32,000 bases of DNA from Erysipelothrix larvae (GCF_001545095.1 NZ_CP013213.1:780001-812000), one strand, 5' to 3'; counted from the stretch's first letter, positions 4,401 to 25,084 are shown. Notes: generated by a model from the sequence alone, not told the origin. A program made the numbers and translations.

Positions 4401-4610
4401 ATAATAAGTGACTTTACCAAAATTATTCCACTGCAACTCAACTTCATAGGGATATCCGTGATAATCAATTGCGGCATTCAGTGAGTAACTGTTACGAATT
4501 GGATTGTGATCGATATGAAAAGAATCTACTGTGTTCATATACTGTCCAATTTTTATATAATTCCTACTTTTTGATACTACATGTTTTATTTCTTGTTCTT
4601 TAAACACCAT
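1407..4610 (-). CDS. SNF2-family helicase/ATPase with N-terminal SWIM zinc finger (YwqA/RapA-like)
   Basis: 1067-aa ORF. SWIM CxCxnCxH motif CDCYYCTSDSACAH near the N-terminus. SNF2 motifs ILADDMGLGKT (I), LDEAQYIKN (II, DEAQ), LTGTPIEN (III), SLRAGGTGINLT (V) and DPWWNISAQNQATDRAYRFGQ (VI). Confidence 0.92.
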   Translation of the reverse strand: MVFKEQEIKHVVSKSRNYIKIGQYMNTVDSFHIDHNPIRNSYSLNAAIDYHGYPYEVELQWNNFGKVTYYDCDCYYCTSDSACAHVGAVMRLVNAANPHTFPFHWESNRREMFEAHIKQLRMQSMVNASDVFLNQQKNVLKDIRRVEAKSIKLEPIVEQVYADAIYLRIKIGENRMYFIKNISEFIKDVASNSFHKYGKDFSTSHHESAFDVDSLKILNLMQVCTLTNDEHSRRVNEIEINAKTIDLFFDTLCDMNALDGLAFETVDLFDNPLQLQLSVDGEYIQVELANESYFMVGQKNLYAMVHGDDTKYRCIRMDTHNNPNVGVLYSRLASNPLVFRKEDFSDFDRYILNNVSQYFKVNTSGVIQRVELDNRIDIFGDINEEGVAVFNVKAYHNDTLLNETFTSKKSSSVAFEYVLDIFNEYDGILDSTKKITSFDLEKKKTNGFLQDGLEQLKQFSNVYVSESLKRLSLRKANPIRLGITFSNDLLGIDLEHDIIPKDEIKDVLNAYKRKKKFYRLKNGELVALLDEDLHDAQELLEKTGNSANDLEEGNVHVNPYRVFMLDALASQYGIETSTPFKKHLDALQIVNQTQFNVPDTINASLRPYQVEGYRWLKMLEHYGFGGILADDMGLGKTLQMICYFASNTGDKPHFVICPSSVLLNWEQEILKFSPHLKPCIIHGSKKQRDVLIDSIGDYDVVVTSYDYLKRDIERLKELEFQTVVLDEAQYIKNANSKNSKCVKLLNAKQRFALTGTPIENSLAELWSIFDFLMPEYLYKYKYFKDHFESPIVREQNKEVSVQLKQMVKPFILRRLKTEVLSDLPDKTEIDMLIEFSDEERKLYYANLAQVNEELQILGKVEKTSDIEVLALLTRLRRICCEPRTIYENITHRSSKLEAVVSFIQDLKEDGKQVLLFSSFTSVLDFIAEALNHHHISYHTLDGRVNKVDRQTRVQSFQNGEVDVFLISLRAGGTGINLTNAEVVIHFDPWWNISAQNQATDRAYRFGQTKNVLVYRFIMKDSIEEKIQLLQSRKKQLSDTFVEDSDGSVVTMTKSEILSLFASDQIPI

Positions 4611-4825
4611 AAATTACTCCTTCGCTCCCCTTATTATACCGTTTTTTAATGTACTCGTCCCATTAAAATAAAAATAAGGAAAAGCAGCCAATCCGGGAAG
4701 GTATAAAACAAACAATGAAATTGAAGTAAACGGTGAGTGAACGTGTGAATTAGGGACGTAATTCTTCCTATGAAGTTCATCATGAAATCAAGCGAGGGTT
4801 AATTTTCGCTTTCAAGTGATTTTAC

Positions 4826-4854
4826 TTGACATCTAGACGTAAACAGCATAGAAT
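4826..4854 (+). promoter_or_regulatory. Sigma-A-type promoter of the rplM-rpsI operon
   Basis: TTGACA (4826-4831), a 17-nt spacer, then TAGAAT (4849-4854), about 60 nt upstream of the rplM ATG. Confidence 0.6.
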
Positions 4855-4860
4855 TATAGA

Positions 4861-4916
4861 CGGCACTTTATGCCAATTGTAGCCCCGGAAACTACATTGG
4901 TTTAGGAGGAAAAGAT
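4861..4916 (+). promoter_or_regulatory. Structured 5' leader of rplM (candidate L13 ribosomal-protein autoregulatory leader)
   Basis: Two hairpins lie between the predicted start site and the SD: GGCA-CTTTA-TGCC and CCAATTGTAG-CCCCGGAAA-CTACATTGG. The second ends directly at the TTTAGGAGG SD. Firmicute rplM genes are known to carry an L13 leader. Homology was not tested. Confidence 0.45.
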
Positions 4917-5354
4917 ATGCGTCAAACAACTATGACGAAGCCAAGCGAGGTAGTGCGCGAGTGGTATGTTGTCGATGGAACTGACAAGACTTTAGGACGT
5001 CTTGCTACTGAAGTTGCAACTGTACTACGCGGTAAGCACAAACCTACATTTACACCAAACGTTGATGCTGGTGATTATGTAATCGTAATTAACGCTGATA
5101 AGATCAAAGTAACAGGTGATCAAGAATTCAAAAAATTCTATTACAACTACTCTGGTTATGCAGGTGGTGTACGTAAGCGTTCAACACGTGTTATGCGTGA
5201 AAGCTACACTGTTGAATGGGTTGAACGTGCAATCCACGGTATGATCCCACACACAAAATTGGGTGACAAACAACGTAAGCACTTATTTGTATACACAGGC
5301 GCTGAGCATCCACATGCTGCGCAACAACCAAAAGAATTGGTTGTTAAAGGTTAG
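4917..5354 (+). CDS. rplM: 50S ribosomal protein L13
   Basis: 145-aa ORF starting [47 protein letters not shown]..., the canonical L13 N-terminus. Strong SD AGGAGG. Followed by rpsI as in the conserved operon. Confidence 0.97.
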
Positions 5355-5362
5355 GAGGAACT

Positions 5363-5767
5363 ATGGCAAGCAAGAAAAAAACTTTATCGTACTACGGTAC
5401 AGGACGTCGTAAGACATCTGTTGCTCGTGTTTACTTAACTCCTGGCTCAGGTGTAATCACAATCAATCACAAACCGATTGATGAGCATCTTCCAAATGAA
5501 TTGTTACGTATGGATGTACGTTCACCATTTGAAGTAACCTCAACAGCAGATCAATTTGATGTAAATGTAAATGTCTATGGTGGTGGATTAACTGGCCAAG
5601 CTGGTGCAATCCGTCACGGTATTTCTCGTGCATTACTTGAAGTATCAGTAGACTATCGCCCAGCTTTAAAAGCTGCAGGCTTCTTGACACGTGATCCACG
5701 TGCGAAAGAACGTAAAAAATACGGACTTCGTGGTGCGCGTCGTGCTCCACAATACTCAAAACGTTAA
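5363..5767 (+). CDS. rpsI: 30S ribosomal protein S9
   Basis: 134-aa ORF with [12 protein letters not shown] near the N-terminus and the universal S9 C-terminus [16 protein letters not shown] 8 nt upstream. Confidence 0.97.
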
Positions 5768-5830
5768 TTTTTTATTACATGTTTTGTACTCAAAACCCAC
5801 TATTCAGTGGGTTTTTTGATGTTTGAGATA
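5756..5830 (+). repeat. attL: left copy of the island-bounding direct repeat (last rpsI codons, stop and terminator)
   Basis: 5756-5830 aligns with 16936-17009. The first 38 nt are identical (TCAAAACGTTAATTTTTTATTACATGTTTTGTACTCAA). After that there are 4 substitutions within the terminator hairpin and one 1-nt indel. Confidence 0.85.
5792..5817 (+). terminator. Rho-independent terminator of rplM-rpsI (attL copy)
   Basis: AAAACCCAC (5792-5800), loop TATTCA, GTGGGTTTT (5807-5815), continuing into a T run. Confidence 0.85.
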
Positions 5831-5850
5831 GGTTGGGAAAGGTCTATAAA

Positions 5851-5880
5851 GTAGCAAAATGGTAGCAAAAAGGTAGCAAA
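5851..5880 (+). repeat. Three GTAGCAAA direct repeats at exact 11-bp spacing (candidate integrase arm-type binding sites, attL arm)
   Basis: GTAGCAAA at 5851, 5862 and 5873. They lie between attL and the 3' end of the int remnant. Related copies occur at 16880-16897 near attR. Confidence 0.55.
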
Positions 5881-5884
5881 GTTC

Positions 5885-6092
5885 TCATTCGTGAAATAAT
5901 GACACTTCTCTCACAACTGATATTCCATCTTTTTTTGTCTTAGTACAGCCAATAATCTTGTATTTGGGATAAGCTGTACCTTTTTCTTTATTTACTGTAG
6001 TACCAACTTTTATACGAACCATATATAAGGATTGGTACGATTGCCTGGTTGTTTAGCAACACCACCAAATCCTTTAGGTAACACACGTGTCA
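5885..6092 (-). pseudogene. int: Tyrosine integrase remnant: only the N-terminal arm-DNA-binding (AP2-like) domain, frameshifted and truncated
   Basis: The ATG at 6092 overlaps the xis stop (ATGA). Frame 1 reads MTRVLPKGFGGVAKQPGNRTNPYIWFV*. After a shift at the TATATA run (6021-6027) the reading continues VRIKVGTTVNKEKGTAYPKYKIIGCTKTKKDGISVVREVSLFHE* (stop 5885-5887). The pattern LPKGF..GNR.NPY.VRI.VG...GK..YK.IG...TKK is typical of integrase N-terminal arm-binding domains. No core-binding or catalytic domain follows. Confidence 0.6.
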
Positions 6093-6341
6093 TAATTTAT
6101 TTCCTCCTTCTGGTTTATCGTTGAAGTATCCAAGTTCTTCCCAGACAAGTTTATCGGGACAGTAGAAACTGAACACCTGAGAATCATTTTTTTTACAGGC
6201 ATATCCAAATTTTAAGAAACCTTGTTTTAATCCTTCTCTTAAGAATGCTCTGGATCTACTAGTTGCTTTTGCGATCTCTTCAATAGGAACATGTCTTCCT
6301 GTAAAGCTTGGTGTGTTGGCGTACATAATCTTATTTGACAT
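6090..6341 (-). CDS. Excisionase-like small DNA-binding protein (Xis candidate)
   Basis: 83-aa ORF directly upstream of, and translationally coupled to, the int remnant. The central segment VPIEEIAKATSRSRAFLREGLKQGFLKFGYA resembles the HTH of ICE/IME excisionases. SD AAGGAGAG lies upstream of the ATG at 6341. Confidence 0.5.
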   Translation of the reverse strand: MSNKIMYANTPSFTGRHVPIEEIAKATSRSRAFLREGLKQGFLKFGYACKKNDSQVFSFYCPDKLVWEELGYFNDKPEGGNKL

Positions 6342-6416
6342 TTTCTTACTCTCCTTTATAATTTTTGACTGTGTTGAGTTATTTTGTTCTGAATTACTTA
6401 AGAATTATGTATATAA

Positions 6417-6448
6417 AAAGCCAACTGAGTAAAACATCAATTGGCTTT
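6417..6448. terminator. Hairpin/terminator between the IS21 insertion point and xis
   Basis: AAAGCCAA (6417-6424) pairs with TTGGCTTT (6441-6448). T runs follow on both strands (minus-strand RNA reads ...GGCUUUUUAUAU). Confidence 0.5.
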
Positions 6449-6480
6449 ATTTTAAATATTTACAATGAATCTTGAATAGA

Positions 6481-6533
6481 TGTATTTGTTAATCTAAAAG
6501 TGGGCCAATTCTCAATTGAAAACTGGTCCACTA
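6481..6533 (+). repeat. IS21 left terminal inverted repeat (IRL)
   Basis: TGTATTTGTTAATCTAAAAGTGGGCCAATTCTCAATTGAAAACTGGTCCACTA. The inner 23 nt are identical to the reverse complement of IRR. Confidence 0.85.
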
Positions 6534-6593
6534 TTTTTATAACTTCAGAAGTGTGTGATAATGCTTTTGGAGGTGAAAGAGGTGATATCACAA

Positions 6594-8042
6594 ATGAGCA
6601 AATATTCAATTATCACATTAAAAAAGAAAGGATGGTCCAACAGAAAGATTGCCCTTGAATTGGGTATAGACCGAAAGACGGTCGCACGGTATCTTCAGGA
6701 ATATAATAAATGTCAAATACAATTGATTGATAATCATGATTTATCAGACGAAAGAAAAGTAGAAGTCATTGATCAAATTGTTGGGGACCGTCACTATGAT
6801 GCAAGCAAACGAGGTAAGCGCAAGTTAACGCAAGAAATTCAAGCACGCATCATTGAAATTATGGATTCAGAAAAAGATAAAGATATGTTACTAGGAAGAC
6901 ATCATAAGCAAAAGTTAACAGTCACTCAAATTTTTGAAATTATCAAAAGCGAGGGACATGATATTGGTCAGACAACCATACGAAATTTTGTGCATGAAAT
7001 TCAAGCTTCACGAGAAACATTTATTCGACAAGATTATCGATATGGTGAGCGGTTAGAGTTTGACTTTGGAGAAGTAAAGCTTTTAATTAATGGTGAACCA
7101 AGAACATATTATCTCGCTGTTTTCTCATCACCAGCAAGCGGATATCGGTATGCATATTTATATCCAAACCAACGCAAACAAGTATTCATAGATGCACATG
7201 TTCGCTTCTTTGAGCATTCTAAAGGCTCTTGGGGTGAAGTTGTATATGACAATATGAGAAACGTCGTGAAGCGCTTTATAACGCCTTATGAAAAAGAAAT
7301 TAATGATGATTGCCTCAAACTGGCACTCTATTATAATTTTGAAATTAACCTGACTAATATACGAAGTGGTCATGAAAAAGGAAGTGTAGAAAACAGTGTT
7401 AAGGTAATTCGAAATCGTGTATTCGCAAAGGACTATAAGTTTGAAACATTTGAAGAGGCATGTGTTCATCTTGAACAGACTCTTGATGAAATCAATATAA
7501 AGAGTTCAATCGAAGATGAAAAGAAAGAACTTCAACCTTACAGAATTCCTTATGAATTCGCTGATATCGAAGTATATAGTGTTGACAAGTATGGTTGTAT
7601 ACACGTTGAAAATAATTTTTATTCAGTCCCAGACTATCTCCAACACAAAAGAGTTACGGTCAAAAACACCGTAAATTCGATACGCATCTATTCAAATCAC
7701 ACATTTGTGTACGAACATAAAAAGATAGATGGTCATCATCAATATCAGCTTGTGTTGGACCACTATCTGAATACAATGATGACTAAGCCGGGATCTGTAA
7801 AGAATTCACTTGTCCTAAAACAACATCCTGAGCTTTATAACATCTACCATAATCATTATAAAACAAGAACTAAAGAGTTCATAGAAATTCTTCAAGAAAA
7901 CAGGAATGAAACGTATAAAACGCTCAAAGATGCTTTAAAGTATCGGTTGGTTTCAAATACAATTGACACCGTTGAGTATGATGACAGCATACAAGAACAA
8001 TCACGTAAACAACTTAAGAAAATAAGCCAATTAATGCACTAG
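6594..8042 (+). CDS. istA: IS21-family transposase IstA
   Basis: The ORF track gives 6555-8042. The ATG at 6594 is preceded by GGAGGTGAAAGAGGTGA. N-terminal HTH GWSNRKIALELGIDRKTVARYL. About 480 aa, immediately followed by istB, which is the canonical IS21 layout. Confidence 0.88.
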   Translation: MSKYSIITLKKKGWSNRKIALELGIDRKTVARYLQEYNKCQIQLIDNHDLSDERKVEVIDQIVGDRHYDASKRGKRKLTQEIQARIIEIMDSEKDKDMLLGRHHKQKLTVTQIFEIIKSEGHDIGQTTIRNFVHEIQASRETFIRQDYRYGERLEFDFGEVKLLINGEPRTYYLAVFSSPASGYRYAYLYPNQRKQVFIDAHVRFFEHSKGSWGEVVYDNMRNVVKRFITPYEKEINDDCLKLALYYNFEINLTNIRSGHEKGSVENSVKVIRNRVFAKDYKFETFEEACVHLEQTLDEINIKSSIEDEKKELQPYRIPYEFADIEVYSVDKYGCIHVENNFYSVPDYLQHKRVTVKNTVNSIRIYSNHTFVYEHKKIDGHHQYQLVLDHYLNTMMTKPGSVKNSLVLKQHPELYNIYHNHYKTRTKEFIEILQENRNETYKTLKDALKYRLVSNTIDTVEYDDSIQEQSRKQLKKISQLMH

Positions 8043-8053
8043 GAGATAAATTA

Positions 8054-8800
8054 ATGGAAACAATTGAACAATTGTCAAAAGAATTAAAACTTTCATTCAT
8101 AAAAACACACTATGAAGCAGCAATACAGGAAGCGAAACACAAAGGATTGGATTTTCAAGAATTTCTTAACGAACTGCTTTATTGCGAACGAAACAATCGT
8201 CGTGACAACGGAATAAAACAACGCATTCGTGCTGCTCGATTTCCTCAAAACAAGACATTGGAGGATTTTACGACTGTAAAATTTAATTCAGAATTAAAAC
8301 GAAAGTTTAAAGAACTGGAAACATTGAACTTTATAGAAAATAAAGAAAACATTATCTTAATGAGTAATCCTGGAATGGGAAAAACACATTATGCGACCGC
8401 ACTTGGAATCAAAGCTTGTCTAGAAAATAAAAAAGTGCTATTTATCAGCGTTCCTAATCTAATTATAGAGTTAAAAGAAGCTATGTCAAAAAATCAAATT
8501 ACGCAATACAAAAAGAAGTTTGAAAAATTTGATCTAGTAATTCTTGATGAACTCGGCTATGTATCATTTGATAAAGAAGGAAGTGAAATTCTATTCAATC
8601 TAATCTCAAATAGAATAACAGTGGGCTCTATGATTATTACAACAAATTTAATGTTCGATAGATGGGAAGAAATATTCAAAGACCCCATTCTAACAACTGC
8701 TCTAGTCGACCGCTTAACCTATAAATCACATCTATTAAATATGAGTGGAGAGAGTTATCGTGTTGAAGAAACAATTGCTTGGCTAAAGAGCAAAGAATGA
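8054..8800 (+). CDS. istB: IS21-family helper ATPase IstB
   Basis: 248 aa with Walker A NPGMGKTHYA and Walker B LVILDELGY (DnaC/IstB-like AAA+). Starts 12 nt after the istA stop, with SD AGGAG. Confidence 0.9.
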   Translation: METIEQLSKELKLSFIKTHYEAAIQEAKHKGLDFQEFLNELLYCERNNRRDNGIKQRIRAARFPQNKTLEDFTTVKFNSELKRKFKELETLNFIENKENIILMSNPGMGKTHYATALGIKACLENKKVLFISVPNLIIELKEAMSKNQITQYKKKFEKFDLVILDELGYVSFDKEGSEILFNLISNRITVGSMIITTNLMFDRWEEIFKDPILTTALVDRLTYKSHLLNMSGESYRVEETIAWLKSKE

Positions 8801-8807
8801 CAAACGG

Positions 8808-8860
8808 TAGTGGACCAGTTTTCAATTGAGATTTGGACCATTATTCAGTTGACAAATACA
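8808..8860 (-). repeat. IS21 right terminal inverted repeat (IRR)
   Basis: The reverse complement reads TGTATTTGTCAACTGAATAATGGTCCAAATCTCAATTGAAAACTGGTCCACTA, matching IRL at 45 of 53 positions. Confidence 0.85.
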
Positions 8861-9095
8861 ATAGACAGGCTACATTTTCATTGTGCTGTAATTTGTGTGT
8901 CTGCATGTTCTCACCTTAACTTTCTTTTGTAACACAGACACTACCACAGTTCTCTTAACATATCTATCAGAACATGACTTAATAACACAAGAGAATGATT
9001 CAGCATGAAAAAAGTACTGAATCACTCAATCTGTTATCAAATCAAATATTAGAAAACATTTGATTATTAAAATTTTAATTTTGGTTAATTCGAAT

Positions 9096-9335
9096 CTACG
9101 AAGGAATCATCTTCGTAGCACTATTAGGCACAGTTTGGATTCGCTGCTTCGCTAGAGTCTCACCATTCCCAATCAAGGAAACACTTACTTGGCTTGCGAC
9201 GGTCTTATCACGCTCGAACGTCCATAAGTGGCGTATAATTATCACTATCACAGTCACCGCAAGATAGGGTATCAAACCTATTTCATCATCCAGTTTCATC
9301 GCTCTCTAGTTTTCTTAAGGTCATGGCGCACTAAT
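9096..9335 (-). other. GC-richer, hairpin-rich block of unknown nature (candidate structured ncRNA or small-protein gene)
   Basis: Visibly higher G+C than the AT-rich flanks. Perfect 8-bp hairpin CTACGAAG-N7-CTTCGTAG at 9096-9118. Possible long-range pairing CTAGAG/CTCTAG. Only a 67-aa ORF (9096-9299) with a weak SD overlaps it. Strand assignment is tentative. Confidence 0.25.
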
Positions 9336-9505
9336 GAAGGTTGCTTGTGTGATAGATAAAGTCACTAATAATGGCTATACAATTTTCAAAGAACATCCCA
9401 CATTTTTATGTGAGAAGAGGAGGATTAAAATCAACCCCTCTATAGTGATAAGGAATCTCAGAGCGTTTTGAGCACCTTTTTTGCTAAATTTCTAAAAACT
9501 TTTTT

Positions 9506-9898
9506 TTATTTGAGCAACATTGAGCGATGTCTTTTGCTTATAGTGGTCTGACTCATATTCTTTGTTTTTGCATACTCGCGATCACTTAAATCGTGGTAGT
9601 ATATCGCAATGAGTAAATCTTTTTCATCATCGGTAAGGGTGTTAATTGCTTTATAAAGTGCTTCGTATCGTTCCATTTTAAGTGCCTCGTTTCTTGTGGG
9701 GTCTAAATCTTCTAATAGTTTTATTTCAAGTGTGTTACTTTCGTACTCATCAAAAAGATGGTCTAGGTAAACCCAGGTGTTGCGGATTTGTTTGGTAAGA
9801 TAGCGTTCATGTTCAATGCTTTTCCAATATTCTCTATAAACTTCTTCGCTAACGTTAACTGCTTGGTTTATAATGTAGATCACATATGTATCATTCAT
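9506..9898 (-). CDS. Sigma-70 region-4-type HTH protein, Tn916 Orf7-like conjugative-element regulator
   Basis: 130 aa. The C-terminal segment LTDDEKDLLIAIYYHDLSDREYAKTKNMSQTTISKRHRSMLLK is a sigma region-4 HTH. SD AGGAGG lies before the ATG at 9898. It has the same orientation as xis-int, as in Tn916-type regulation modules. Confidence 0.6.
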   Translation of the reverse strand: MNDTYVIYIINQAVNVSEEVYREYWKSIEHERYLTKQIRNTWVYLDHLFDEYESNTLEIKLLEDLDPTRNEALKMERYEALYKAINTLTDDEKDLLIAIYYHDLSDREYAKTKNMSQTTISKRHRSMLLK

Positions 9899-10471
9899 AT
9901 TGATATTCCTCCTGTTTCTGTAATCTGTATTTGATTTGAAACAGGGTGGTGCTCTAACATTTAGAATGCAAAAAAAACTCCTTTAAACCCTGGAGGCAAC
10001 TATAAAGAACATTTAATTGTTATGAGTGGCCTTCAAGTATAATAGCCCAAAGTGTCATATATTCAAATGAACTTTGCTTAAATGGAAACTCCGTACCGTT
10101 TATCATAAATCTGATTATAATCCACGAATGATTTCAAGTAACTGATAAATGTTAAAGTTGCTTCTAGCTTGATTAAACAGTTACTATAAGCTATATATAT
10201 AGAATTAGGTAGCAATATTTTTATGAAAGACTCCGTATACAAGCAAAGCCTATTAAAAGGTTTAGTAATTGTACAACGAATTTCTTAGACACCATTTTGT
10301 CAAACGAATACTAATTTAATAAAAATGTTCGTTATTACTCCTTTGTGCTTTAAACAATGTATTAATGGTCAAATTAAGCAGCATAAATTTAAATGCTATC
10401 TTATATCACAAAGAATTCTTGCTGTAGAATTTACAATTTAATCAATTAAAAATCAACTTATTCGTAATTTG

Positions 10472-10499
10472 TTGAGATTAGATGCTTGAAACTTATAAT
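10472..10499 (+). promoter_or_regulatory. Candidate promoter of the bacteriocin-like operon
   Basis: TTGAGA (10472-10477), a 16-nt spacer, then TATAAT (10494-10499), about 40 nt upstream of the ATG at 10540. Confidence 0.45.
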
Positions 10500-10539
10500 A
10501 GAATCAAGGTTGACATGTGTAATAAAAATAGGATGAGTA

Positions 10540-11001
10540 ATGAAAAAATTATACAAAATTGTGGTAACAAGCGTATTGCTAGCAACGTTTACTTTAAATG
10601 TAAGTGCCGTAATGCTAAAACAATATACAAGCACCACATACGTGGAAAGCACTCATCCGAATATATGGGAATATGTAGGAAATGTTTCCGTTAAGGGTGC
10701 AGATTGGATTCGTATCGATGAAAACAACTGGGCATATCCAAGTTTTAGTCGGATTACCTATCAAGCTCCGAATTTTTTAGGAGGGACATTATCAGGGTAT
10801 TCAAATCACCCTAAAACAGTATATTCAACAGGGAAAAACGATGGTACACAACGTAAGGCAAGTATAACCGTAAAGGATTCTCTTAATCCGATAAATGGTA
10901 AAACTAAAGCACTTTGGAATATTAATCTTATTAACCGTGGAGTGCAGCCGGGTGATCCCAAACCTTGGAGCGTTGAAACCAAATTAACTGGATTAGAATA
11001 G
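10540..11001 (+). CDS. Secreted 153-aa protein, lactococcin-972-like bacteriocin candidate (enlarged)
   Basis: Sec signal peptide MKKLYKIVVTSVLLATFTLNVSA. The mature part contains W-EYVG and GYSNHPKTVYSTGKNDGTQRKASITV. From memory these resemble the Lcn972 mature motifs TWQHGYG and YSNYHHGSKTHSATV...GKDTQRAG. It is followed by DUF1430-type membrane proteins plus an ABC ATPase, which is the canonical Lcn972 locus architecture. Confidence 0.55.
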   Translation: MKKLYKIVVTSVLLATFTLNVSAVMLKQYTSTTYVESTHPNIWEYVGNVSVKGADWIRIDENNWAYPSFSRITYQAPNFLGGTLSGYSNHPKTVYSTGKNDGTQRKASITVKDSLNPINGKTKALWNINLINRGVQPGDPKPWSVETKLTGLE

Positions 11002-11060
11002 ACCTAAAAAAAGTATTTTAAAAGTGATTACACATGTCTTCCATTTATAGAGGTGATACT

Positions 11061-12080
11061 ATGAAAAAAATTAGATTATACGCAATGAGTACTACAAATT
11101 TATTAATTCTTCTAACACTTTTAATGATGCTAAGTTATGTGCATTTAAGTGCAAAAAGAGAGAAACTTCCATTTTTTATGACACCTAATTTTATTAAAGT
11201 AACCAATAATAGTGCTAACAATGTGCCAGTTAGACTTCTTGAAAAATATAACTCAGAAGAAGATATCACAATCATCAGTGCTTATGACGAGGAAGCCACA
11301 ATTGGTATTTATGATCCAAATATGAACTATGCTATGGGGAATACAGTGATTTTCTTTGGCCAAACACGTTATTTTTCATCAAGTGACTATTTGAATGCGA
11401 CGAAATCTGGAATTATAGTATCTGATAATCTAGCTTACGATATGGAACATTGTAAATTATCTAATAATGATCACATTGAAGATGTTATGTATTGTACAGA
11501 TTCAGAGAGTATGCTTTCAAATGATGGCAAGACACGACAAATTGTTAATTTATTTTCATTTGATAATCTCGGTGAATCCGTGTATCTAGATTATTATTCA
11601 GAATCTGGTAAAGGTGTTGTAAGTCAAATCGTTAGTGATCTTAAACAAAATGGATACCACGTTGATTCAAGCGACATTCCTAATGTTATTGAAGCACTAA
11701 TTCAGCCAAATAAAGGCTTGATTAGTGTCATTATGACTGGAAGTTTTGTTTTTTATATACTATATTACATTGTGTCATACTGGTATTTCTTCAATATGCG
11801 AAGGGAAGTTTCAATTCACTATTTACATGGGGGACAGTTTAAAAGTATGGCTCATCGCTTTGTAAAGCCACTGTTTTATATTTCAATATTACAGCTAACC
11901 GTTGCATATCTCTTTGCGAATTATCAACGAAGTTTTGGCTACTTAATTATGAGTAATGGATCATTACTGATTATTTCTATTTTCCACATCGTGCTAACAC
12001 TTTCCATTCATGTCATTGCTTACCAAAGAGTTTATACAAGCATTAAGAATAAGCGAGGTGATACTGATTATGTTAGATAA
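11061..12080 (+). CDS. FtsX/DUF1430-type integral membrane protein (bacteriocin-associated immunity/export permease, paralog 1)
   Basis: The ORF track gives 11034-12080. The ATG at 11061 follows SD AGAGGTGA. Topology is one N-terminal TM, a ~190-aa extracytoplasmic domain, then three C-terminal TMs. The motif NMRREVSIHYLHGGQFKSM sits after TM2, as in MacB/FtsX-type permeases. Confidence 0.7.
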   Translation: MKKIRLYAMSTTNLLILLTLLMMLSYVHLSAKREKLPFFMTPNFIKVTNNSANNVPVRLLEKYNSEEDITIISAYDEEATIGIYDPNMNYAMGNTVIFFGQTRYFSSSDYLNATKSGIIVSDNLAYDMEHCKLSNNDHIEDVMYCTDSESMLSNDGKTRQIVNLFSFDNLGESVYLDYYSESGKGVVSQIVSDLKQNGYHVDSSDIPNVIEALIQPNKGLISVIMTGSFVFYILYYIVSYWYFFNMRREVSIHYLHGGQFKSMAHRFVKPLFYISILQLTVAYLFANYQRSFGYLIMSNGSLLIISIFHIVLTLSIHVIAYQRVYTSIKNKRGDTDYVR

Positions 12081-13155
12081 TATTCGATATGGACTTAGGG
12101 ATGTCTACAAAAATAAAATTTTCTTCATAATAACCGTCTTTTTCTTAGTTACACTTAATGTGGTTGCGGTAATAACCGCATATTCAATTCGCTATGACTA
12201 TTATGAAAGAGAACAAATTGAAACTCAAGAAGCCGTTAGATTTAAAGCTGTTCCTGTAGGCTATGATTTCAAGTATGATAAAAAAAATCTTGATAAGTAT
12301 ATGGAAATACTTAATCAAAATGCAATGACATATCGAATTTCATATACACTTTCTGAAGAAAATGATGCATTGGTTTTTCTTGTTTTTGGGGATCCATCTC
12401 TAATTAATGATGAAATTGAAAGTAGTTTGAATACTGATGAAGTAAAAGTTTACACATATGACGAAGCAGTTGATAAAGAAATTAAAGTTCTCGACGAGAC
12501 CTATCCGGTACATTTAATCAATTATGATAATCATAATTTGAGTATTTTTAATGATATAGGACGAGATTCTATATTAGTTGTCTATCAGGGACACAATGCA
12601 TATGAAGTTATAAATCTTCTTTTACAATCCGATTCAGGTACCTTTTATGAATTATTATCGCAAACAATTGTACGCCAGGATGATAGACAGCGTATTGATG
12701 CATTCATGGACTTTGTGAATACAAATATTAAAGAGTTTAAATTTATAAGTCCGTATATCATCGCGATGGATGACTATGTTTCATCAAATCATGTCTTTAT
12801 TCGTCATTATCTCATACCCTTGTATATTATTATGTTTTTCATGGGTGTCTTTTCATTCCAAGTAATTTTTAAAGGGCTTTTGAATAAGATGCAAAGAGAA
12901 TTCACGATTCATGTCCTTCATGGTGCAAAGTTTCGCGATATCTTGATACGGCAACTGGTGTTCTATTTGTCGATGATGATAACTGCGGTAGTTTTGGCTG
13001 GAATCTTTGTGTTTCCAATTGGAAGACAAGAACCATTGATTGTTCTCTCTGTATTGATTACAAGTGGATTGATTCTGCTGATGAGTATCATTTATATCTA
13101 TATTGCATTGAAAAGAACAAATTTATTTGAGAACTTGAGAGGAGATCATGTATGA
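12070..13155 (+). CDS. FtsX/DUF1430-type integral membrane protein (paralog 2)
   Basis: The ORF track gives 12010-13155. The ATG at 12070 follows SD GAGGTGA and overlaps the paralog-1 stop by 11 nt. Topology is the same 1+3 TM arrangement, with the matching motif NKMQREFTIHVLHGAKFRDI. Confidence 0.7.
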   Translation: MLDNIRYGLRDVYKNKIFFIITVFFLVTLNVVAVITAYSIRYDYYEREQIETQEAVRFKAVPVGYDFKYDKKNLDKYMEILNQNAMTYRISYTLSEENDALVFLVFGDPSLINDEIESSLNTDEVKVYTYDEAVDKEIKVLDETYPVHLINYDNHNLSIFNDIGRDSILVVYQGHNAYEVINLLLQSDSGTFYELLSQTIVRQDDRQRIDAFMDFVNTNIKEFKFISPYIIAMDDYVSSNHVFIRHYLIPLYIIMFFMGVFSFQVIFKGLLNKMQREFTIHVLHGAKFRDILIRQLVFYLSMMITAVVLAGIFVFPIGRQEPLIVLSVLITSGLILLMSIIYIYIALKRTNLFENLRGDHV

Positions 13156-13823
13156 TTTTAGAGTTGCGAAATGTTAACCGGATCTATGAGACCGATGGTT
13201 TACGAAAACAAGCATTGAAAGATATTACGATTAAGATAAGTTCTGGAGATCAGATTATGATTTTGGGTGCTTCAGGATCTGGAAAATCAACGTTATTGAA
13301 TATCATTGGGTTACTTGACAAAGGGTATGAGGGGCAGTACCTGATTGATGGTATCGAGAGAAAGACGTTAACAGAAAAAGAGCAAGCAACATTGAGAAGT
13401 CGTTTATTCGGATATGTATTTCAAGATTTTGTTTTAGTCGAAAATGAAACAATTTTTGAGAATGTCAGAATTCCATTAATTTATTCAACCATTGAGAAAA
13501 GTAAGCACAAAGCGATGATTGAAACGGCTCTAGAAGGCGTAGGTTTAGCGGGGATGAGTCGTAAACGTGTGAAGTATCTGTCAGGTGGTGAACGGCAACG
13601 TGTTGCGATTGCACGTGCGTTAGTAAATCAACCGAAGATTGTGATTGCGGATGAGCCTACAGGATCGTTAGATCAAATTACACGTGAACAAGTATTAGAT
13701 ATCATATACAATTACCTCGATGAGGATAAGATATTGCTTTTTGTTACCCATGATTTAGAGAATAATCGAAGAGGTGAACAAAAAATAATTGATATAAAAA
13801 ACGGTGAGTTATTTTTTGACTAA
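13152..13823 (+). CDS. ABC transporter ATP-binding protein (MacB/LolD-like)
   Basis: 223 aa with Walker A GASGSGKST, signature LSGGERQRVAIARAL and Walker B IVIADEPTGSLD. The start overlaps the upstream stop (ATGA). Confidence 0.92.
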   Translation: MILELRNVNRIYETDGLRKQALKDITIKISSGDQIMILGASGSGKSTLLNIIGLLDKGYEGQYLIDGIERKTLTEKEQATLRSRLFGYVFQDFVLVENETIFENVRIPLIYSTIEKSKHKAMIETALEGVGLAGMSRKRVKYLSGGERQRVAIARALVNQPKIVIADEPTGSLDQITREQVLDIIYNYLDEDKILLFVTHDLENNRRGEQKIIDIKNGELFFD

Positions 13824-13854
13824 GTCGAATGGTGTTGATATAAATTTGCAAAGT

Positions 13855-13882
13855 GAGAAAGCAATTTGCTTTCTTTTTTTTT
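13855..13882 (+). terminator. Rho-independent terminator after the ABC ATPase
   Basis: GAGAAAGCA / TGCTTTCTT stem with a 3-nt loop, followed by a T run of at least 8. Confidence 0.8.
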
Positions 13883-13990
13883 GAAATCAAGAGCCATGTT
13901 TAAGCATATTAGCAATTTTAAAATTAACTATTAAATATCTAAAAAATACTATTCTATGGTAATATGAAATAGTGATGGGAGGGGTAATCT

Positions 13991-14713
13991 GTGTTTAAAG
14001 TAGCACTCGTTGATGATAATCCAAGCATTCATAGTATTATTAGAAAACTATTGAATGATTCATTTGCGGTTCATAAATTTGAATTGAAGTCGTACTATTC
14101 TGCCGAAGATCTTTTAGAGGATTATTCTAATAGTCATTTTTCTTTTCTTTTATTAGATATAGAAATGCCTGAAACAAACGGAATAGAGCTGTCGGAGAAA
14201 CTGCAATTTCTGAATCACAAAATCCCCATAATCTTTTTGACGTCGTATGAACACTATATGAAAGATGCCTTTGGATTAAATGTCTATAGTTACATTTTGA
14301 AAGATAATATGATAGAAGAGCTACCCAGTGTTATAAGAAAACTTTTAGTTACTCTTGAAGTAATTGAAAATCGCATACAAGTATCGTTTAATACAGATAT
14401 GGGAAATATTAAGCTTTACGAGGAAGATATTGTATGTGTTTATTTTGAGGATAGGCGACCAACAATTTATACAAAAAAAATAAAGGTAAGGGTTTATGGA
14501 GAGGCTTTGTACTCTGTGTATGAAAAACTTTCGAGTGATATGTTTTTACAACCAAATAGTGGAATTATAGTAAATCTTAAGTATATAAAGACGATTCAAG
14601 ATATGATTATATATTTAAATTTTTTTCCTTTTCCGATAACTATTTCAAGAAGTAAAATTAGAGTCATAAAGAGTAAATATACAGAATTCTTGGCCAGAGG
14701 AGATTCACTTTGA
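13991..14713 (+). CDS. LytTR-family response regulator (AgrA-like)
   Basis: 240 aa with a GTG start after GGGAGGGG. Receiver domain: VALVDDNP and the phospho-acceptor context LLLDIEMPETNGIEL. The ~100-aa C-terminal domain is LytTR-type (...IVCVYFEDRRPTIYTKK...). Confidence 0.85.
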   Translation: MFKVALVDDNPSIHSIIRKLLNDSFAVHKFELKSYYSAEDLLEDYSNSHFSFLLLDIEMPETNGIELSEKLQFLNHKIPIIFLTSYEHYMKDAFGLNVYSYILKDNMIEELPSVIRKLLVTLEVIENRIQVSFNTDMGNIKLYEEDIVCVYFEDRRPTIYTKKIKVRVYGEALYSVYEKLSSDMFLQPNSGIIVNLKYIKTIQDMIIYLNFFPFPITISRSKIRVIKSKYTEFLARGDSL

Positions 14714-16005
14714 TTTTGCAAAATATAATACTCGTTATCATCGAGTTATTTTATTGTTCAATTGATGTAATGCTCTTGCATTATTTTTGTTCAATATTGA
14801 TGACAAAGAAAAAGAAAAATATGTTTGTTGAAATTTCTATCTATTGCATCGCTGTTATAGGAGTATTTTTGTTAACATATGGTACACTTTTTTCGAAAAG
14901 TGGCAATTTATTATCGTTTCTTATTATGCTGCTATATGCATATATAATATTTGAAAAAGCATCGAGTGGTGCATTTATTACGGTAAGTTTTTATTATATC
15001 TGCTCAGGAATTGTAACACTTCTTACTGCTTCAGTAGTACCGATGGTTTTTGATACATCTATTTCTAGTATAATGTCAAATCCGTTATTTCGATCATTAA
15101 TTGTCCTATTTACGAAACTATTGATACTTTTAATAGGGTTTTTCTGCCGTAATAAGTTTAGTCTATATTCAGACAATACAGTAAACTTGCGTGGCGTCCT
15201 GATATTCTTTGTCATCGTATTTGTCAATTTGACTTTTGTTTTTGAATTTGTGTATTTAAGTGAAGAAATTCCGTTGGAAAACCTAGTTTTAACTATGATC
15301 TTCACTTTTATAATCTTTATTGTATTAATTACGATATTAATGATGAAGTATATAGATGAAAAAGAGAAAACTATTAATCTTGAAATTAAACTTGAAGAAG
15401 CAAACCGGAAAAATGAAGAATACATAAAAATTGCGAGTGACCAAGTTGAAATTATGAGGGTAAAACATGATTTAAAAAATCATCTTGTTGTTTTAGATAG
15501 CTTCATTCAGCAAAACGGCATTGAAGATGCAAAAAAATATTTAGACAAACTTTTTGTTCATCCAGGGTTAAAATCATATGTAAATACTAAAAATATGATT
15601 ATAAATGCAGTAATGAATCAAAAAATTGCTGAATATCCAAATATTAGGTTCAAGGTAAGACACGACGATAATTTCTATAATATAAGTGATACTGCATTAA
15701 CGATTATTTTGGGTAATGCTCTTGATAACGCAATTGAGGCAGTTAAATTTATGAATAGTCCAGAAGTAAAAGTAGTTTTTAGTGAGAACGAAAACTATAT
15801 TAAGTTGTATATAGAAAATCCATTTAGTATACAACCAATAATTAGACGTGGAAAATTCATAACACAGAAGGATTCGAGATTTTCTGGTATCGGTATAAAT
15901 AATATATTACAGGCTTCAAAATCAGTAGGTGGTGAAGCGGTTTTTAAAGTTGAATCTAACGTATTCAAACTTGTTGTACTTGTGGATAAACATTTCAATC
16001 AATAA
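14710..16005 (+). CDS. AgrC-type (HPK10, GHKL) sensor histidine kinase
   Basis: 431 aa. The TTG start overlaps the response regulator stop and follows SD AGAGGAG. The N-terminal ~215 aa are polytopic (6-7 TM). H-box MRVKHDLKNHL, N-box LGNALDNAIEA, G-box SGIGINNIL. Confidence 0.85.
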   Translation: MILQNIILVIIELFYCSIDVMLLHYFCSILMTKKKKNMFVEISIYCIAVIGVFLLTYGTLFSKSGNLLSFLIMLLYAYIIFEKASSGAFITVSFYYICSGIVTLLTASVVPMVFDTSISSIMSNPLFRSLIVLFTKLLILLIGFFCRNKFSLYSDNTVNLRGVLIFFVIVFVNLTFVFEFVYLSEEIPLENLVLTMIFTFIIFIVLITILMMKYIDEKEKTINLEIKLEEANRKNEEYIKIASDQVEIMRVKHDLKNHLVVLDSFIQQNGIEDAKKYLDKLFVHPGLKSYVNTKNMIINAVMNQKIAEYPNIRFKVRHDDNFYNISDTALTIILGNALDNAIEAVKFMNSPEVKVVFSENENYIKLYIENPFSIQPIIRRGKFITQKDSRFSGIGINNILQASKSVGGEAVFKVESNVFKLVVLVDKHFNQ

Positions 16006-16073
16006 AAATGCAAAATAAACAAAATATATTTTAAAGTATGCTTTATATGGCTATGATAAAAGCGGTGATTAAT

Positions 16074-16622
16074 ATGGATTATATTACAAAAAAAATAAGC
16101 AATTGGCTTTTAAAAGAAAATTACATTACTGATGATCAAGCTGACGATATCATATATGCTTTAGAAATAGTTATTTCCAATATTCTTCCGTTTACCACCA
16201 TTTTGATTTTGGGAGTTGTATTTCAACAATTGACCAAGACTGTATTATTTTTTCTAGTTTTTGTTGGTTTTCGAATATTAAGAGATAGATATCATGCGCC
16301 AACTTTTTTAAAATGTTATATACTCACAGTTGGTTCGTTCATAAGTTGTTTAGTAATGTCACTTATCATTAATCTTGAGGTTCAACTCCTATTTACATTC
16401 TACATGGTAATTCTAAATATTCTACTATTCGTAGTCTTCAAAACAAAAATCGATGAAGGTCAAAATCAAAAATCTAATTTTATCTATAATTTTATATTAA
16501 TAACGTACAATTCTCTATGTTTAATATTGAGTAAATTTGTTTTACATGAGTACACTGTTTTTTTATCAGTTCTTGGACTAATTATTGTTTCAACGTCAAT
16601 TGCCAAAGAAAAATCAAATTAG
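16074..16622 (+). CDS. agrB: AgrB-family accessory gene regulator protein B (AIP-precursor processing peptidase)
   Basis: The ORF track gives 16038-16622; the ATG at 16074 is preferred. Polytopic membrane protein with the segment FRILRDRYHAPTFLKCYILTV. This carries the AgrB catalytic His and Cys exactly 7 residues apart (H74/C81 here; H77/C84 in S. aureus AgrB). Confidence 0.8.
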   Translation: MDYITKKISNWLLKENYITDDQADDIIYALEIVISNILPFTTILILGVVFQQLTKTVLFFLVFVGFRILRDRYHAPTFLKCYILTVGSFISCLVMSLIINLEVQLLFTFYMVILNILLFVVFKTKIDEGQNQKSNFIYNFILITYNSLCLILSKFVLHEYTVFLSVLGLIIVSTSIAKEKSN

Positions 16623-16879
16623 CAAATATAAAAATACAACTTATTCAATATTGAAACAGTTTATTCAAAATCATTTTACATAAAAGTAATTTTGGAAACT
16701 CTAAATAGATAAAGGAAAACTGGACTTGATGAAGATTATACATGTAAGTCGTTGACTCAATTTTGTATGAGAGAAAAGGACTGTTATATAGTCTTCTAAA
16801 CGGAGGGATTTAAAGTGTAGCTGTCTAGTAGTTGTTTAGAATTCCAAAGTTTGTATATAGTTTACGATGTTTGACAAAT

Positions 16880-16897
16880 GTAGCATGGAGTAGCAAA
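16880..16897 (+). repeat. GTAGCA(AA) direct repeats near attR (candidate arm-type integrase sites)
   Basis: GTAGCATG at 16880 and GTAGCAAA at 16890. They have the same orientation as the three copies at 5851-5880 and lie about 40 nt inside attR. Confidence 0.45.
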
Positions 16898-16935
16898 CCA
16901 CTCACAAACCCTTATATCTAGTACATTAGGAATTA

Positions 16936-17009
16936 TCAAAACGTTAATTTTTTATTACATGTTTTGTACTCAAGGCCCACTATCTAGTGGGTTTTTTGAT
17001 GTTTAGATA
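16936..17009 (+). repeat. attR: right copy of the island-bounding direct repeat
   Basis: See attL. Contains TCAAAACGTTAA (a pseudo-3' end of rpsI) plus a variant terminator hairpin. Confidence 0.85.
16972..16997 (+). terminator. Second copy of the rpsI-type terminator (attR copy)
   Basis: AAGGCCCAC / GTGGGTTTT stem (two G-U pairs) followed by a T run. No gene lies immediately upstream of it. Confidence 0.6.
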
Positions 17010-17278
17010 TCGTAGAAAAACAGCATAAAGTCCCCTTTAAGAAGCACCAAAGCAGTGGAATTAACCATCACAATGTGCCCAGTTGAATGAACATGAACAC
17101 TCAGTGAACCTAAGACAATTCAACTTCATCATTTTATCGAAAGTTTTTATATTAATTGTATATTCATGCATTTGATCGGCTATAAAATGTCGCTTTACAC
17201 ATATTGTCAAATAAAAACTGGCTAAAGATAAACACGTGTAACAATCCAAACAAATGCTTTAGGGTGTAGAATATGTAT

Positions 17279-17322
17279 AAAAAAAGACAACAAGCACGTT
17301 TTGATTTTGAGCTTGTTGTCTT
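17279..17322 (-). terminator. Rho-independent terminator of the PTS EIIC gene
   Basis: AAGACAACAAGC (17284-17295) pairs with GCTTGTTGTCTT (17311-17322). A 7-T run follows on the minus strand. It lies 20 nt downstream of the stop at 17342. Confidence 0.8.
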
Positions 17323-17341
17323 AATGGTTACACGTTTTATA

Positions 17342-18628
17342 TTATTTCGCGATAAGTTTTTGTTCATCGGCGAGTTGCTTCTTGTCCATTGTTTTGAAGA
17401 ATGGATAATAGAGACATAAATCAAGTGCTAGAATCATAAATTGAAGAAGAATTGCACCAATATTCCAATTCGTTGCGATGGCACCACTTAATCCAATAGG
17501 CATGGTCCAAGATGGGTTAATTCCCACAGGTCTTGCGACAAGGTTAAAATTCATCAATGTATACACTACAAGAAGATTAATCACTGGAACAAAGATATAT
17601 GGAATCAACATGACAGGATTCAAGACAATTGGAACACCAAACATAAGAGGCTCGTTGATATTGAATACCGATGGTACGATACTAAGTTTACCCATTGTTT
17701 TCATTTGTTTACTCTTTGAGAAAAATGCAAGCAAGATTGCGAGTGCTAGTGTAGCACCGCCACCACCGAGCCATACAAAATTCATCATAAATGGATAACT
17801 TATAATATTAGGAATCTGTTTTCCTGCTTCAAACGCGAGTCTGTTTGCGTCCATGAGAGAAAACCAAATTGGATACATCACGGCACCAATCAAATCAGTT
17901 CCGTGTATGCCTAAGAACCAGAAGACAGATGAGAGAATAATCGCAACTAAAGTACCACCAAGGCCACTACCAATTCGAGTGAGTGGGATTCCGATTAATG
18001 TTGTTACAACATCATGAAGTCCTTGTGATCCTGTTTGACGTGCAAAGTAATCAAGAAATGCCCAAATAAAGAGAATTGCGAATCCAGGGATAATGGATGA
18101 AAAAGCAGCACTAACCCCCGAAGGTACTGTTTCTGGCATTTTAATTGTCCAGTCCATTTTCACGATGAAGCGATAAATTTCTACACTCACAAGTGCAAGC
18201 ACGATTGCGCTAAATAATCCACCACTGCCAAGTTTTGAATAGTCAATACCACTCAAACCCTCACCATCAAGTACAGATGGCGTAATGATGATAAATGCAG
18301 ATAATGAGATGATTCCTACGGAAACGTCGGGAAGACCATATTCTTTTGCAAGATTATAGGCTACACCAAATGCAACAACAAGTGCCATTACCCCAAAACT
18401 ACCATTTGTAATTTTACTTAATACACCCCCAACATTGCCAAATTTAGTCAATGTTTCAGTCCAATTTGGGATGGGTAAATTTCCAATTACCATTGATAAT
18501 GATCCAATGATTATCAATGGCATTGCCATCGACATCCCCAAGAAAACAGCGTGGAAATGTTTTTGCCCTTGCAGTTTACCTGCATAAGGCAATATTTTTT
18601 CTTCTAAAAACGTATTAATTCTTTCCAT
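17342..18628 (-). CDS. PTS lactose/cellobiose-family EIIC permease
   Basis: The ORF track gives 17342-18658. The ATG at 18628 follows TAGGAGGAAAT. The protein starts MERINTFLEEKILPYAGKLQGQKHFHAVFLGM..., the typical CelB/LicC-type EIIC N-terminus. About 10 TM segments. Confidence 0.85.
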   Translation of the reverse strand: MERINTFLEEKILPYAGKLQGQKHFHAVFLGMSMAMPLIIIGSLSMVIGNLPIPNWTETLTKFGNVGGVLSKITNGSFGVMALVVAFGVAYNLAKEYGLPDVSVGIISLSAFIIITPSVLDGEGLSGIDYSKLGSGGLFSAIVLALVSVEIYRFIVKMDWTIKMPETVPSGVSAAFSSIIPGFAILFIWAFLDYFARQTGSQGLHDVVTTLIGIPLTRIGSGLGGTLVAIILSSVFWFLGIHGTDLIGAVMYPIWFSLMDANRLAFEAGKQIPNIISYPFMMNFVWLGGGGATLALAILLAFFSKSKQMKTMGKLSIVPSVFNINEPLMFGVPIVLNPVMLIPYIFVPVINLLVVYTLMNFNLVARPVGINPSWTMPIGLSGAIATNWNIGAILLQFMILALDLCLYYPFFKTMDKKQLADEQKLIAK

Positions 18629-19622
18629 ATTTCCTCCTATTATGATGATGAAAATCAATTGTTTGACGCATCATCACAATTCTTATAATTCCTATGAATA
18701 GTTATCTTTATACCCCTTAAAGTATATAAAAATTCATGAATGAGTCGGTGTAAGCAAAAACATAATTTGCAGTGTTACACATGATGTCACGATAAAAAAC
18801 GAATGAAATGTGTTTTTTATCGTATCCCGTTAATGAATACATTAAGATGTATCCATTAAATAGCAAAAAACAAACAAAGGCTTTCATTCGCCATATCAGC
18901 AATTTTTTAAACTATCCATTATTCGTTTGATTGTCTCTACATATACTGCATCGTAAAGTTCTCTTTGTAATGGTGATGAAAACAATGGTTAATTCATCAA
19001 TAAAAGCTGCATTAGTGTCAAGAACTCTGGTTTTCTTTACAATGAAGAGACGAGCTGGAGGTGATAATCACCTTACACTCATATCATAACACTTTATTGT
19101 ACTTCACCTTTGCTTTGTATCAGAAAAGCCTATTGATGCTCTCTATATCACATTTATTTATTGTTATAAGCTGTGATTCATTTGGATCAAATAAGTGGAT
19201 AGATGGGGGTGTGAAGTGATATTATGACGCAAATATGATCTTAGAATCAAACTTTTTGATGCTTCTTGATGTTGAATAAGTGAAAAGCGTACAGATCATG
19301 AATCGAATCGTATTAAATAAATGATGATGCTTTGGGCAGATACATAAAGTTAATCTGACAAGAACTCATAAAAATCGCATAATTGCGTCTCGACGATGAA
19401 GATGCAGTGGATGATGTTATCAAGACAATGAAATAACGGAAGCAAAAGGGGTACGTATTGGCCGTGTTGTCAACGATACTGGGACCGTTTGTAAGCTGTT
19501 AAATGCGACTTAAACCCAGCACAACTCTTCAACTGATTGATACGCGCTCAAAAAAGCACAAGGGTCATAACCATTGATGAACTAAAAAGGGGTGCTATAA
19601 TAAATTTAAGGAGTGAGTATAT

Positions 19623-20048: not shown

Positions 20049-20075
20049 AGCACCCAAATCGGTGCTTTATTTTTT
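20047..20075 (+). terminator. Rho-independent terminator
   Basis: AAAGCACC / GGTGCTTT stem, loop CAAATC, followed by a T-rich tail. Confidence 0.8.
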
Positions 20076-20154
20076 ACAAACACTATCTTGTTTGACAATA
20101 TAGTAAGAATCGTTTATACTACCACTATATTGCAATACAAGAGAGGTGGTTTTG

Positions 20155-21280: not shown

Positions 21281-21326
21281 TAAGGGTTTCTTTTTCACTG
21301 AAAACTAAAAAAATATACCCATACTG

Positions 21327-22864: not shown

Positions 22865-22866
22865 GC

Positions 22867-25081: not shown

Positions 25082-25084
25082 ATT

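Follow-up and report, generated by a model that had tools for sequence, protein, structure and literature searches.

The 3′ end of rpsI, the gene for ribosomal protein S9, is a described target for integrative and conjugative elements (ICEs) as well as for integrative and mobilizable elements (IMEs) among streptococci (PMC4701971, PMC5357655, PMC5090054). These elements, which include IMESag-rpsI and those with integrases of the Tyr_4, Tyr_5 and Tyr_7 families, carry a tyrosine integrase gene at their rpsI-proximal end and are bounded by direct repeats that restore the end of the gene. They frequently stand in tandem accretion with decayed elements, as described at streptococcal rpsI (PMC5357655, PMC5704250). 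Elements that retain their attachment (att) sites and have lost the genes for integration and transfer are defined as cis-mobilizable elements (CIMEs) (PMC5704250). Here, we analysed 32,000 nt of Erysipelothrix larvae DNA (NZ_CP013213.1:780001-812000; the window, from whose first letter all positions are counted), where an 11.2-kb island (5768 to 16935) lies at the 3′ end of rpsI. The island belongs to the known kind of tyrosine-integrase elements that target this site. Our reading, to which we give a probability of about 80%, is that an rpsI-specific integrative element inserted here, probably by accretion, and then decayed to a CIME-like island. A first-pass annotation of the locus had described a tyrosine-integrase island that is bounded by attL and attR and restores the rpsI 3′ end; an intact sister element, related modules at rpsI, arm repeats and attR junctions from foreign hosts bear this out. 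It had also named the rpsI 3′ end as a streptococcal target, which the publications cited above document. In the literature searched, we found no report of rpsI-targeting elements in Erysipelothrix, and our results extend them from streptococci to this genus and its relatives.

The target gene lies next to rplM (4917-5354) and is whole (134 aa), its coding end being restored at the insertion. The gene and the two repeat copies are as follows.

5363-5767, plus strand: rpsI, ribosomal protein S9, the target (Pfam Ribosomal_S9, E=1e-49)
5756-5830, plus strand: repeat copy 1, attL; core 5756-5768, element-borne spacer 5768-5791, hairpin 5792-5815 with T-run
16936-17009, plus strand: repeat copy 2; core 16936-16948, spacer, hairpin 16972-16995; read as an internal att site

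The two copies (75 and 74 nt), whose starts are separated by 11,180 nt, align end to end. They are identical over their first 38 nt (5756-5793 and 16936-16973), which hold the three last sense codons of rpsI with the stop (TCA AAA CGT TAA) and 26 nt of spacer. Beyond this stretch there are four substitutions and one 1-nt indel, the latter placed after the T-run. All four substitutions fall inside the terminator hairpin: two (AA>GG) are in the 5′ arm of the stem, where they become G-U pairs, and two (TC>CT) are in the loop. Both copies are predicted to form terminator hairpins of -14 kcal/mol (z ~ -3). With up to three mismatches tolerated, the 38-mer occurs exactly twice in the window and never in 100 shuffles, and neither a third copy nor a more distal right boundary was found there. 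Contigs of the Logan assemblies end at the 38-nt repeat. No gene or open reading frame (ORF) directly precedes copy 2, AgrB ending at 16622. Thus, the repeat geometry reported in the first pass, from the identical start to the hairpin substitutions and the second copy with no gene in front of it, agrees with our alignments, shuffles and ORF map.

The last 12 nt of rpsI (5756-5767) are TCAAAACGTTAA, the three final codons and the stop, and this sequence is common to every attL and attR junction that we examined. At five attR junctions of other hosts (L103 and L120, L117 and L119, L118), the element right end is 90-94.5% identical to window 16850-16948, the homology ends directly after TCAAAACGTTAAT, and three different host terminators then follow. 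On the attL side, L111, L102 and the window differ in the rpsI codons before the core, yet have the same spacer and hairpin after it. Because TCAAAACGTTAA(T) is the sequence common to all junctions, strand exchange must occur within these 12-13 nt; junction mapping thus narrows the crossover core, which had been taken as the whole 38-nt identical stretch. The empty site of E. rhusiopathiae has a different native terminator after rpsI. Since the same spacer and hairpin stand downstream of the core in three hosts, the spacer and terminator that now serve rpsI are element DNA, and the element, not the host, supplies the terminator of an essential ribosomal gene. This had been proposed for the attL copy and holds, as that copy travels with the element in L111 and L102; the companion proposal, that the copy at attR is the native terminator, is probably wrong, since the relic of a second arm follows it.

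The features at the two ends of the island, and just beyond its right end, are listed below.

5851-5880, plus strand: arm-type repeats beside int, three GTAGCAAA copies with 11 bp spacing
5885-6093, minus strand: tyrosine integrase remnant, ~60 N-terminal codons with a 2-nt frameshift, deletion junction ~5922/5923
6090-6341, minus strand: xis-like gene, 83 aa, intact, its stop overlapping the int start (ATGA)
16850-16935, plus strand: element right end, the arm distal to int, with GTAGCATGGAGTAGCAAA at 16880-16897
17015-17074, plus strand: relic, putatively of the int-proximal arm of another and older rpsI element; its 60 nt are 78% identical to the L102 arm

After correction of its frame, the int remnant matches the N-terminus of P0071 at 56 of 57 residues and is 69-71% identical to the N-terminus of the E. 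rhusiopathiae int. P0071 is an intact integrase (353 aa, PF00589) that we found by a homolog search with an E. rhusiopathiae int fragment as query. It is encoded on L111, a metagenomic contig with an E. rhusiopathiae-like rpsI, which carries rpsI, the same spacer and terminator, arm repeats, the intact int and xis. The reverse complement of this contig aligns with the window in three segments.

L111rc 1-222, window 5714-5936: 91% identity
L111rc 1161-1719, window 5920-6480: 94% identity
L111rc 1714-2084, window 8860-9232: 90% identity

P0071 sits in the gap of this alignment, where L111 has ~940 bp extra. The window has lost int codons ~62 to 353 and 60 nt downstream of the gene, the deletion junction near 5922/5923 lying between imperfect 17-nt repeats, and it differs from L111 by a further 2-nt indel at ~codon 24. 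With its catalytic domain deleted, the island has no functional integrase, and the remnant at 5885-6093 should be labelled a pseudogene.

The xis-like gene is also found immediately upstream of int in L083, L111 and L112. None of the 20 homologs of its product belongs to a Pfam family, and no NCBIfam family was found either. Its structural model (beta-alpha-alpha-beta-beta-alpha) is winged-helix-like at low confidence (predicted local distance difference test, pLDDT, 60), and a Foldseek comparison of this model with the PDB returned nothing significant (E>=0.23). Its position and the model suggest an excisionase. Public records assign this protein and those next to it to Erysipelothrix larvae (locus tags AOC36_03575 and AOC36_03580), and they label the gene, almost certainly in error, a 'flagellar hook-length control protein'. 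That a xis-like gene and an int remnant stand beside attL had been seen in the first pass, and the comparison with L111 and P0071 agrees. As to the arm repeats, the window has four GTAGCAAA copies, every one of them at an end of the island, with 1.2 copies expected and no shuffle of 100 reaching four. They are kept in L111, variants of them occur in L083, L102 and L112, and they are putative binding sites for the N-terminal domain of the integrase.

To the right of copy 2, the relic at 17015-17074 has a local alignment score of 58 with the L102 arm, where shuffles give a mean of 15 and a maximum of 25 (0 of 1000 reach 58). It also matches the arm of E. rhusiopathiae L083, and this arm motif is missing from the empty E. 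rhusiopathiae site. Beyond 17074, no match to any element was found. These alignments argue that the present island probably entered an older related element at its rpsI-proximal att site, by tandem accretion, and that copy 2 probably marks where the island's right end meets the left end of that element. Accretion of two related element ends would account for a repeat of 75 bp here, whereas similarity at attR elsewhere ends ~13 bp in. Because of the decayed arm, the right flank has no core DNA at its start; the earlier statement that both flanks consist of core genes needs this amendment.

We propose the following course of events. An rpsI-specific tyrosine-integrase element would have inserted by site-specific recombination within TCAAAACGTTAA(T), its end bringing in identical codons together with a spacer and an intrinsic terminator, whereby rpsI stayed intact and came to be terminated by element DNA (attL, 5756-5830). 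The site entered was probably not a virgin attB but the rpsI-proximal att site of the older element, whose survivors would be the spacer and terminator of copy 2 and the 60 nt of decayed arm sites (16948-17074). A ~940-bp deletion between imperfect short repeats would then have removed int codons ~62 to 353 and a 2-nt indel put those that remain out of frame; later, an IS21-family insertion sequence (IS) would have inserted between xis and the sigma-like gene described below. The order of these events is our proposal.

The same integrase clade is found beside rpsI, in the same orientation and with the same core, in at least five other hosts, namely E. rhusiopathiae, Holdemanella and three uncultured hosts. 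In several of them, xis-int modules read toward rpsI and are separated from it by a spacer, a hairpin and GTAGCAA-type repeats. The occupied sites include the following.

L083-088, E. rhusiopathiae strains: type III restriction-modification cargo, SNF2 helicase, internally deleted int
L023, Holdemanella hominis: intact 382-aa int, Mob_Pre (MobV) relaxase, AAA_25 protein
L033, uncultured bacterium: intact int
L112-116, a further host: xis, intact 362-aa int, PemK and type I restriction-modification cargo

The E. rhusiopathiae island was examined within the 10-kb flank of L083, and its distal end lies beyond. All ten complete genomes of this species that were compared (L092-L101) are empty at this site: rpsI is followed by the different native terminator, then by tRNA genes and a ferritin gene, and both the island and the arm motif are absent. 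Thus, a comparison with relatives, as the first-pass annotation had advised, yielded empty sites in the sister species, and the only other E. larvae assembly found carries the island. For this reason, insertion is deduced here from sister elements and not from a same-species comparison. In the S9 search of genome contigs, neither an Erysipelothrix isolate genome above 83% nor the window's own genome was among the matches listed. Together with the intact sister element and several attR junctions, the empty and occupied sites of the sister species form an unusually clean comparative set for this kind of element. A search of viral contigs with the attR junction gave 0 matches, tRNA genes are absent from the window by a tRNA scan, and Rfam detected no RNA family in 4500-22000.

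Two side observations concern relatives of these modules. At the occupied E. rhusiopathiae site (L083:11420-11625), two similar terminator hairpins stand in tandem between rpsI and the arm repeats. Away from rpsI, L089:8198-16879 holds a related module (sigma-like gene, PemK, xis and a split int) that adjoins a different agr-like module (AgrB, helix-turn-helix protein, LytTR regulator, kinase) and has arm repeats of another type, GGTAACAA.

As a mobile element, the E. larvae island is inserted at the rpsI 3′ end, restores the end of the coding sequence, and has the core within the direct repeats on either side. Its 11.2 kb are wholly covered by xis, the int remnant, IS21, a sigma-like gene and cargo. 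Pfam and NCBIfam scans of its ORFs revealed no mobilization (Mob), Rep or coupling-protein family, and no conjugation (type IV secretion) module is present in the 11.2 kb, so it is neither a functional IME nor a functional ICE. As in a CIME, the two att copies remain intact together with the arm repeats, int has been deleted and transfer genes are missing. Because intact integrase, relaxase, replication and conjugation genes are lacking, its gene content marks the island as a CIME-like, non-autonomous decayed element, which could move only with a related integrase in trans, or in cis with an incoming element. A prophage or satellite origin was rejected, as there are no phage genes.

The streptococcal IMEs and ICEs at rpsI share with this island the target gene and the position in it (PMC5090054, PMC5357655, PMC4701971), and the likeness to the Tyr families is one of target and architecture. 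They differ in host, which here is one of the Erysipelotrichaceae, and in that the window copy has no intact integrase, relaxase or Rep; IMESag-rpsI has a MobV (Mob_Pre) relaxase, as does the Holdemanella relative. Cargo differs too, the streptococcal elements carrying toxin-antitoxin, arsenic and mercury genes, whereas an agr-like module and an ABC exporter are found here. CIMEs formed by decay and accretion, such as the islands related to ICESt1 and ICESt3 in Streptococcus thermophilus (Pavlovic 2004, as cited in PMC5704250), offer a second comparison. With respect to these islands, as they are presented in that citing article, the difference lies in the partner, here reduced to a ~130-nt relic, and in cis-mobilization, which is here a prediction. 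Since the partner is only such a relic, there is at present nothing for the island to be mobilized with.

The interior of the island holds the features below.

6481-8859, plus strand: IS21-family element, 2379 bp, with istA at 6555-8042 and istB at 8054-8800
9506-9898, minus strand: small regulator of the element backbone, 130 aa, with similarity to sigma-70 region 4
10359-16695, plus strand: cargo cassette, 6.3 kb, its genes assigned with Pfam, NCBIfam and membrane topology
10540-11001, plus strand: secreted 153-aa protein, cargo
11034-12080, plus strand: FtsX/MacB-like permease 1, cargo
12070-13155, plus strand: FtsX/MacB-like permease 2, cargo
13152-13823, plus strand: ABC ATPase, cargo
13991-14713, plus strand: LytTR response regulator (Response_reg and LytTR)
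14710-16005, plus strand: AgrC-like kinase (HATPase_c_5, 52 bits; 6-7 N-terminal transmembrane segments; GHKL, polytopic)
16038-16622, plus strand: AgrB (PF04647, 72.9 bits)

The IS21 has 53-nt terminal inverted repeats (85% match) and a target-site duplication, AATAGA, at 6475-6480 and 8860-8865. The istB product matches Pfam IstB_IS21 (E=2e-64); for IstA, helix-turn-helix and Mu-transposase C-terminal matches were the only ones, the DDE/rve catalytic family not being detected. The two genes, the long inverted repeats and the 6-bp duplication are those of the IS21 family, with nothing unusual, and agree with its identification in the first pass. The uninterrupted target site is seen in L111 and in a Logan assembly (L002, SRR6161627) that is otherwise 100% identical to the window over both flanks and the island. 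Because IS21 is missing from so close a sequence, its transposition is very recent or still segregating in the strain. IS21 is a secondary passenger, inserted after the arrival of the island.

The 130-aa regulator gives matches to Sigma70_r4 and r4_2 (E ~5e-5) and to TIGR02937 (35.8 bits) that are all under cut-offs, and a similar gene stands upstream of xis-int in L089. It had been called an 'Orf7-like' regulator: a small protein is indeed there, with a match to sigma-70 region 4 that stays under the curated cut-offs.

In the cargo cassette, both permeases have one transmembrane segment, a loop of ~190 aa and a C-terminal hydrophobic cluster. Pfam and NCBIfam searches placed neither them nor the 153-aa protein in a known family, and structure prediction for the latter, from only six homologs, gave an unusable model (pLDDT 47.6). 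The best match of the ABC ATPase is TIGR03608, the exporter of the lactococcin-972-group bacteriocins, at 209 bits with a cut-off of 254.85, and a PADLOC scan returned generic ABC ATPase matches only. The former 'bacteriocin-type' label of this locus derives solely from that TIGR03608 match, itself below cut-off. As in lactococcin 972-type loci, a small secreted protein of Sec type precedes membrane proteins and an ABC ATPase with TIGR03608 as best match; the ATPase is under cut-off, and the 153-aa protein and the permeases match no family. The second half of the cassette resembles staphylococcal agr and the agr-like systems of clostridia and lactobacilli in its AgrB, its LytTR regulator and its HATPase_c_5 kinase with weak similarity to AgrC. 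It differs in gene order, A-C-B here, and in that no AgrD precursor was identified: inspection of the cassette's intergenic regions gave no plausible small ORF preceded by a ribosome-binding site. The agr-like module of the first-pass annotation is thus confirmed for AgrB, the AgrC-type histidine kinase and the LytTR regulator, and not for agrD. A quorum-sensing-controlled export or bacteriocin-immunity-type system is a reasonable guess as to the function of the cargo.

The cassette is 97.5-98.9% identical at the nucleotide level to those of L102-L109, and also lies downstream of rpsI in L102, L108 and L109. The rplM-rpsI region of these hosts is only ~71-72% identical to the window, and S9 has 70% amino-acid identity. 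This disparity indicates a recent horizontal transfer of the cargo, a very recent passage of a quorum-sensing-linked exporter cassette between such hosts. The GC content is 31.8% for the island and 30.5% for the cargo; the left flank is at 37.3% and the right flank at 35-40%. L118:3720-14183 has the same 90-nt right end as the window island with entirely different cargo, a sign that modules are exchanged behind an att-proximal arm that is conserved.

How the cargo arrived can be read in another way, as a move mediated by ISs, in the manner of a composite transposon, into an rpsI island already in place. Indeed, an IS3-family transposase meets the cassette exactly at the equivalent of window position 10359 in L103, L106, L108 and L109, and rve genes flank it on both sides in L105. 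From this, the cassette would seem to travel as a unit between ISs too, and IS-mediated shuffling among rpsI islands is plausible; the shared right end with different cargo in L118 fits as well. In the window, neither cassette border has IS3 sequence, and L103 holds the cassette and the element right end on one contig, as the window does. We consider this route rather doubtful here, and it would add to site-specific integration of the island rather than replace it. A different account concerns the integration itself: a single event into a virgin attB, with an attP that carries the 75-bp copy, would make copy 2 and everything to its right native E. larvae DNA. The streptococcal rpsI integrases Tyr_4 and Tyr_5 are reported to go with long direct repeats (PMC5357655), the relic spans just 60 nt and no same-species empty site contradicts this account. 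However, those 60 nt are homologous to element arms in two other hosts, well above the shuffle maximum, and in E. rhusiopathiae the arm motif is specific to the element, occupied sites having it and empty sites lacking it. Moreover, at the five other attR junctions the host DNA after TCAAAACGTTAAT is unrelated to the element spacer and hairpin, and the spacer and hairpin of copy 2 resemble element ends from the distant hosts with ~71-72% identical rplM-rpsI. A single integration is thus unlikely. By far the least probable account takes the repeats for a generic dispersed sequence or for an rpsI terminator duplicated locally. The first pass had raised a dispersed repeat as a formal possibility, which is all that speaks for it; the unit has two copies only in 32 kb, every other locus examined has it attached to rpsI or to an element end, and int and xis homologs flank it.

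The reading that we prefer, an rpsI-specific element inserted, probably by accretion, and decayed to a CIME-like island, has points that weigh against it. No same-species empty site was found, since the one other assembly (SRR6161627), recovered by exact S9, EIIC and xis protein matches, has the island. The relic arm is short (60 nt at 78% identity), and accretion is a proposal. The excisionase role of the xis-like gene comes from position and a low-confidence model. Finally, L083 retains the native terminator before the element sequence: it is still homologous to the empty site L092 across the first, native hairpin, so that its junction lies ~51 nt beyond the stop codon, which does not fit the simple core model. 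The double hairpin of L083 may be one more layered remnant.

Current understanding of integrative elements is not overturned by these data. As a tentative extension, possible though not the likelier outcome, the rpsI 3′ end of Erysipelotrichaceae could be a serial docking site, at which elements of one integrase clade repeatedly swap the terminator of the gene for their own, accrete and decay into att-flanked cassettes, the present island still being mobilizable by a P0071-type element. If true, this would explain how an agr-controlled cassette for a secreted protein and a MacB-type exporter is ~98% identical in hosts as far apart as different genera, and the exporter cassette would possibly represent a new bacteriocin family.

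The neighbourhood of the island yields two further observations. To the left, a SNF2-family helicase (window 1407-4610) and an ABC transporter (275-1168) precede rplM-rpsI in E. larvae, where E. rhusiopathiae and other relatives have the usual ecfA-ecfA-ecfT-truA; the left neighbourhood is thus also rearranged. To the right, window 21707-29520 holds a bkd/ptb-buk metabolic region, with a branched-chain 2-oxoacid dehydrogenase operon (E1 alpha, E1 beta, E2, E3), then PTS_EIIC_2, phosphate butyryltransferase and a butyrate-kinase-like gene, at a GC content of 40-43% and with the character of ordinary core metabolism.

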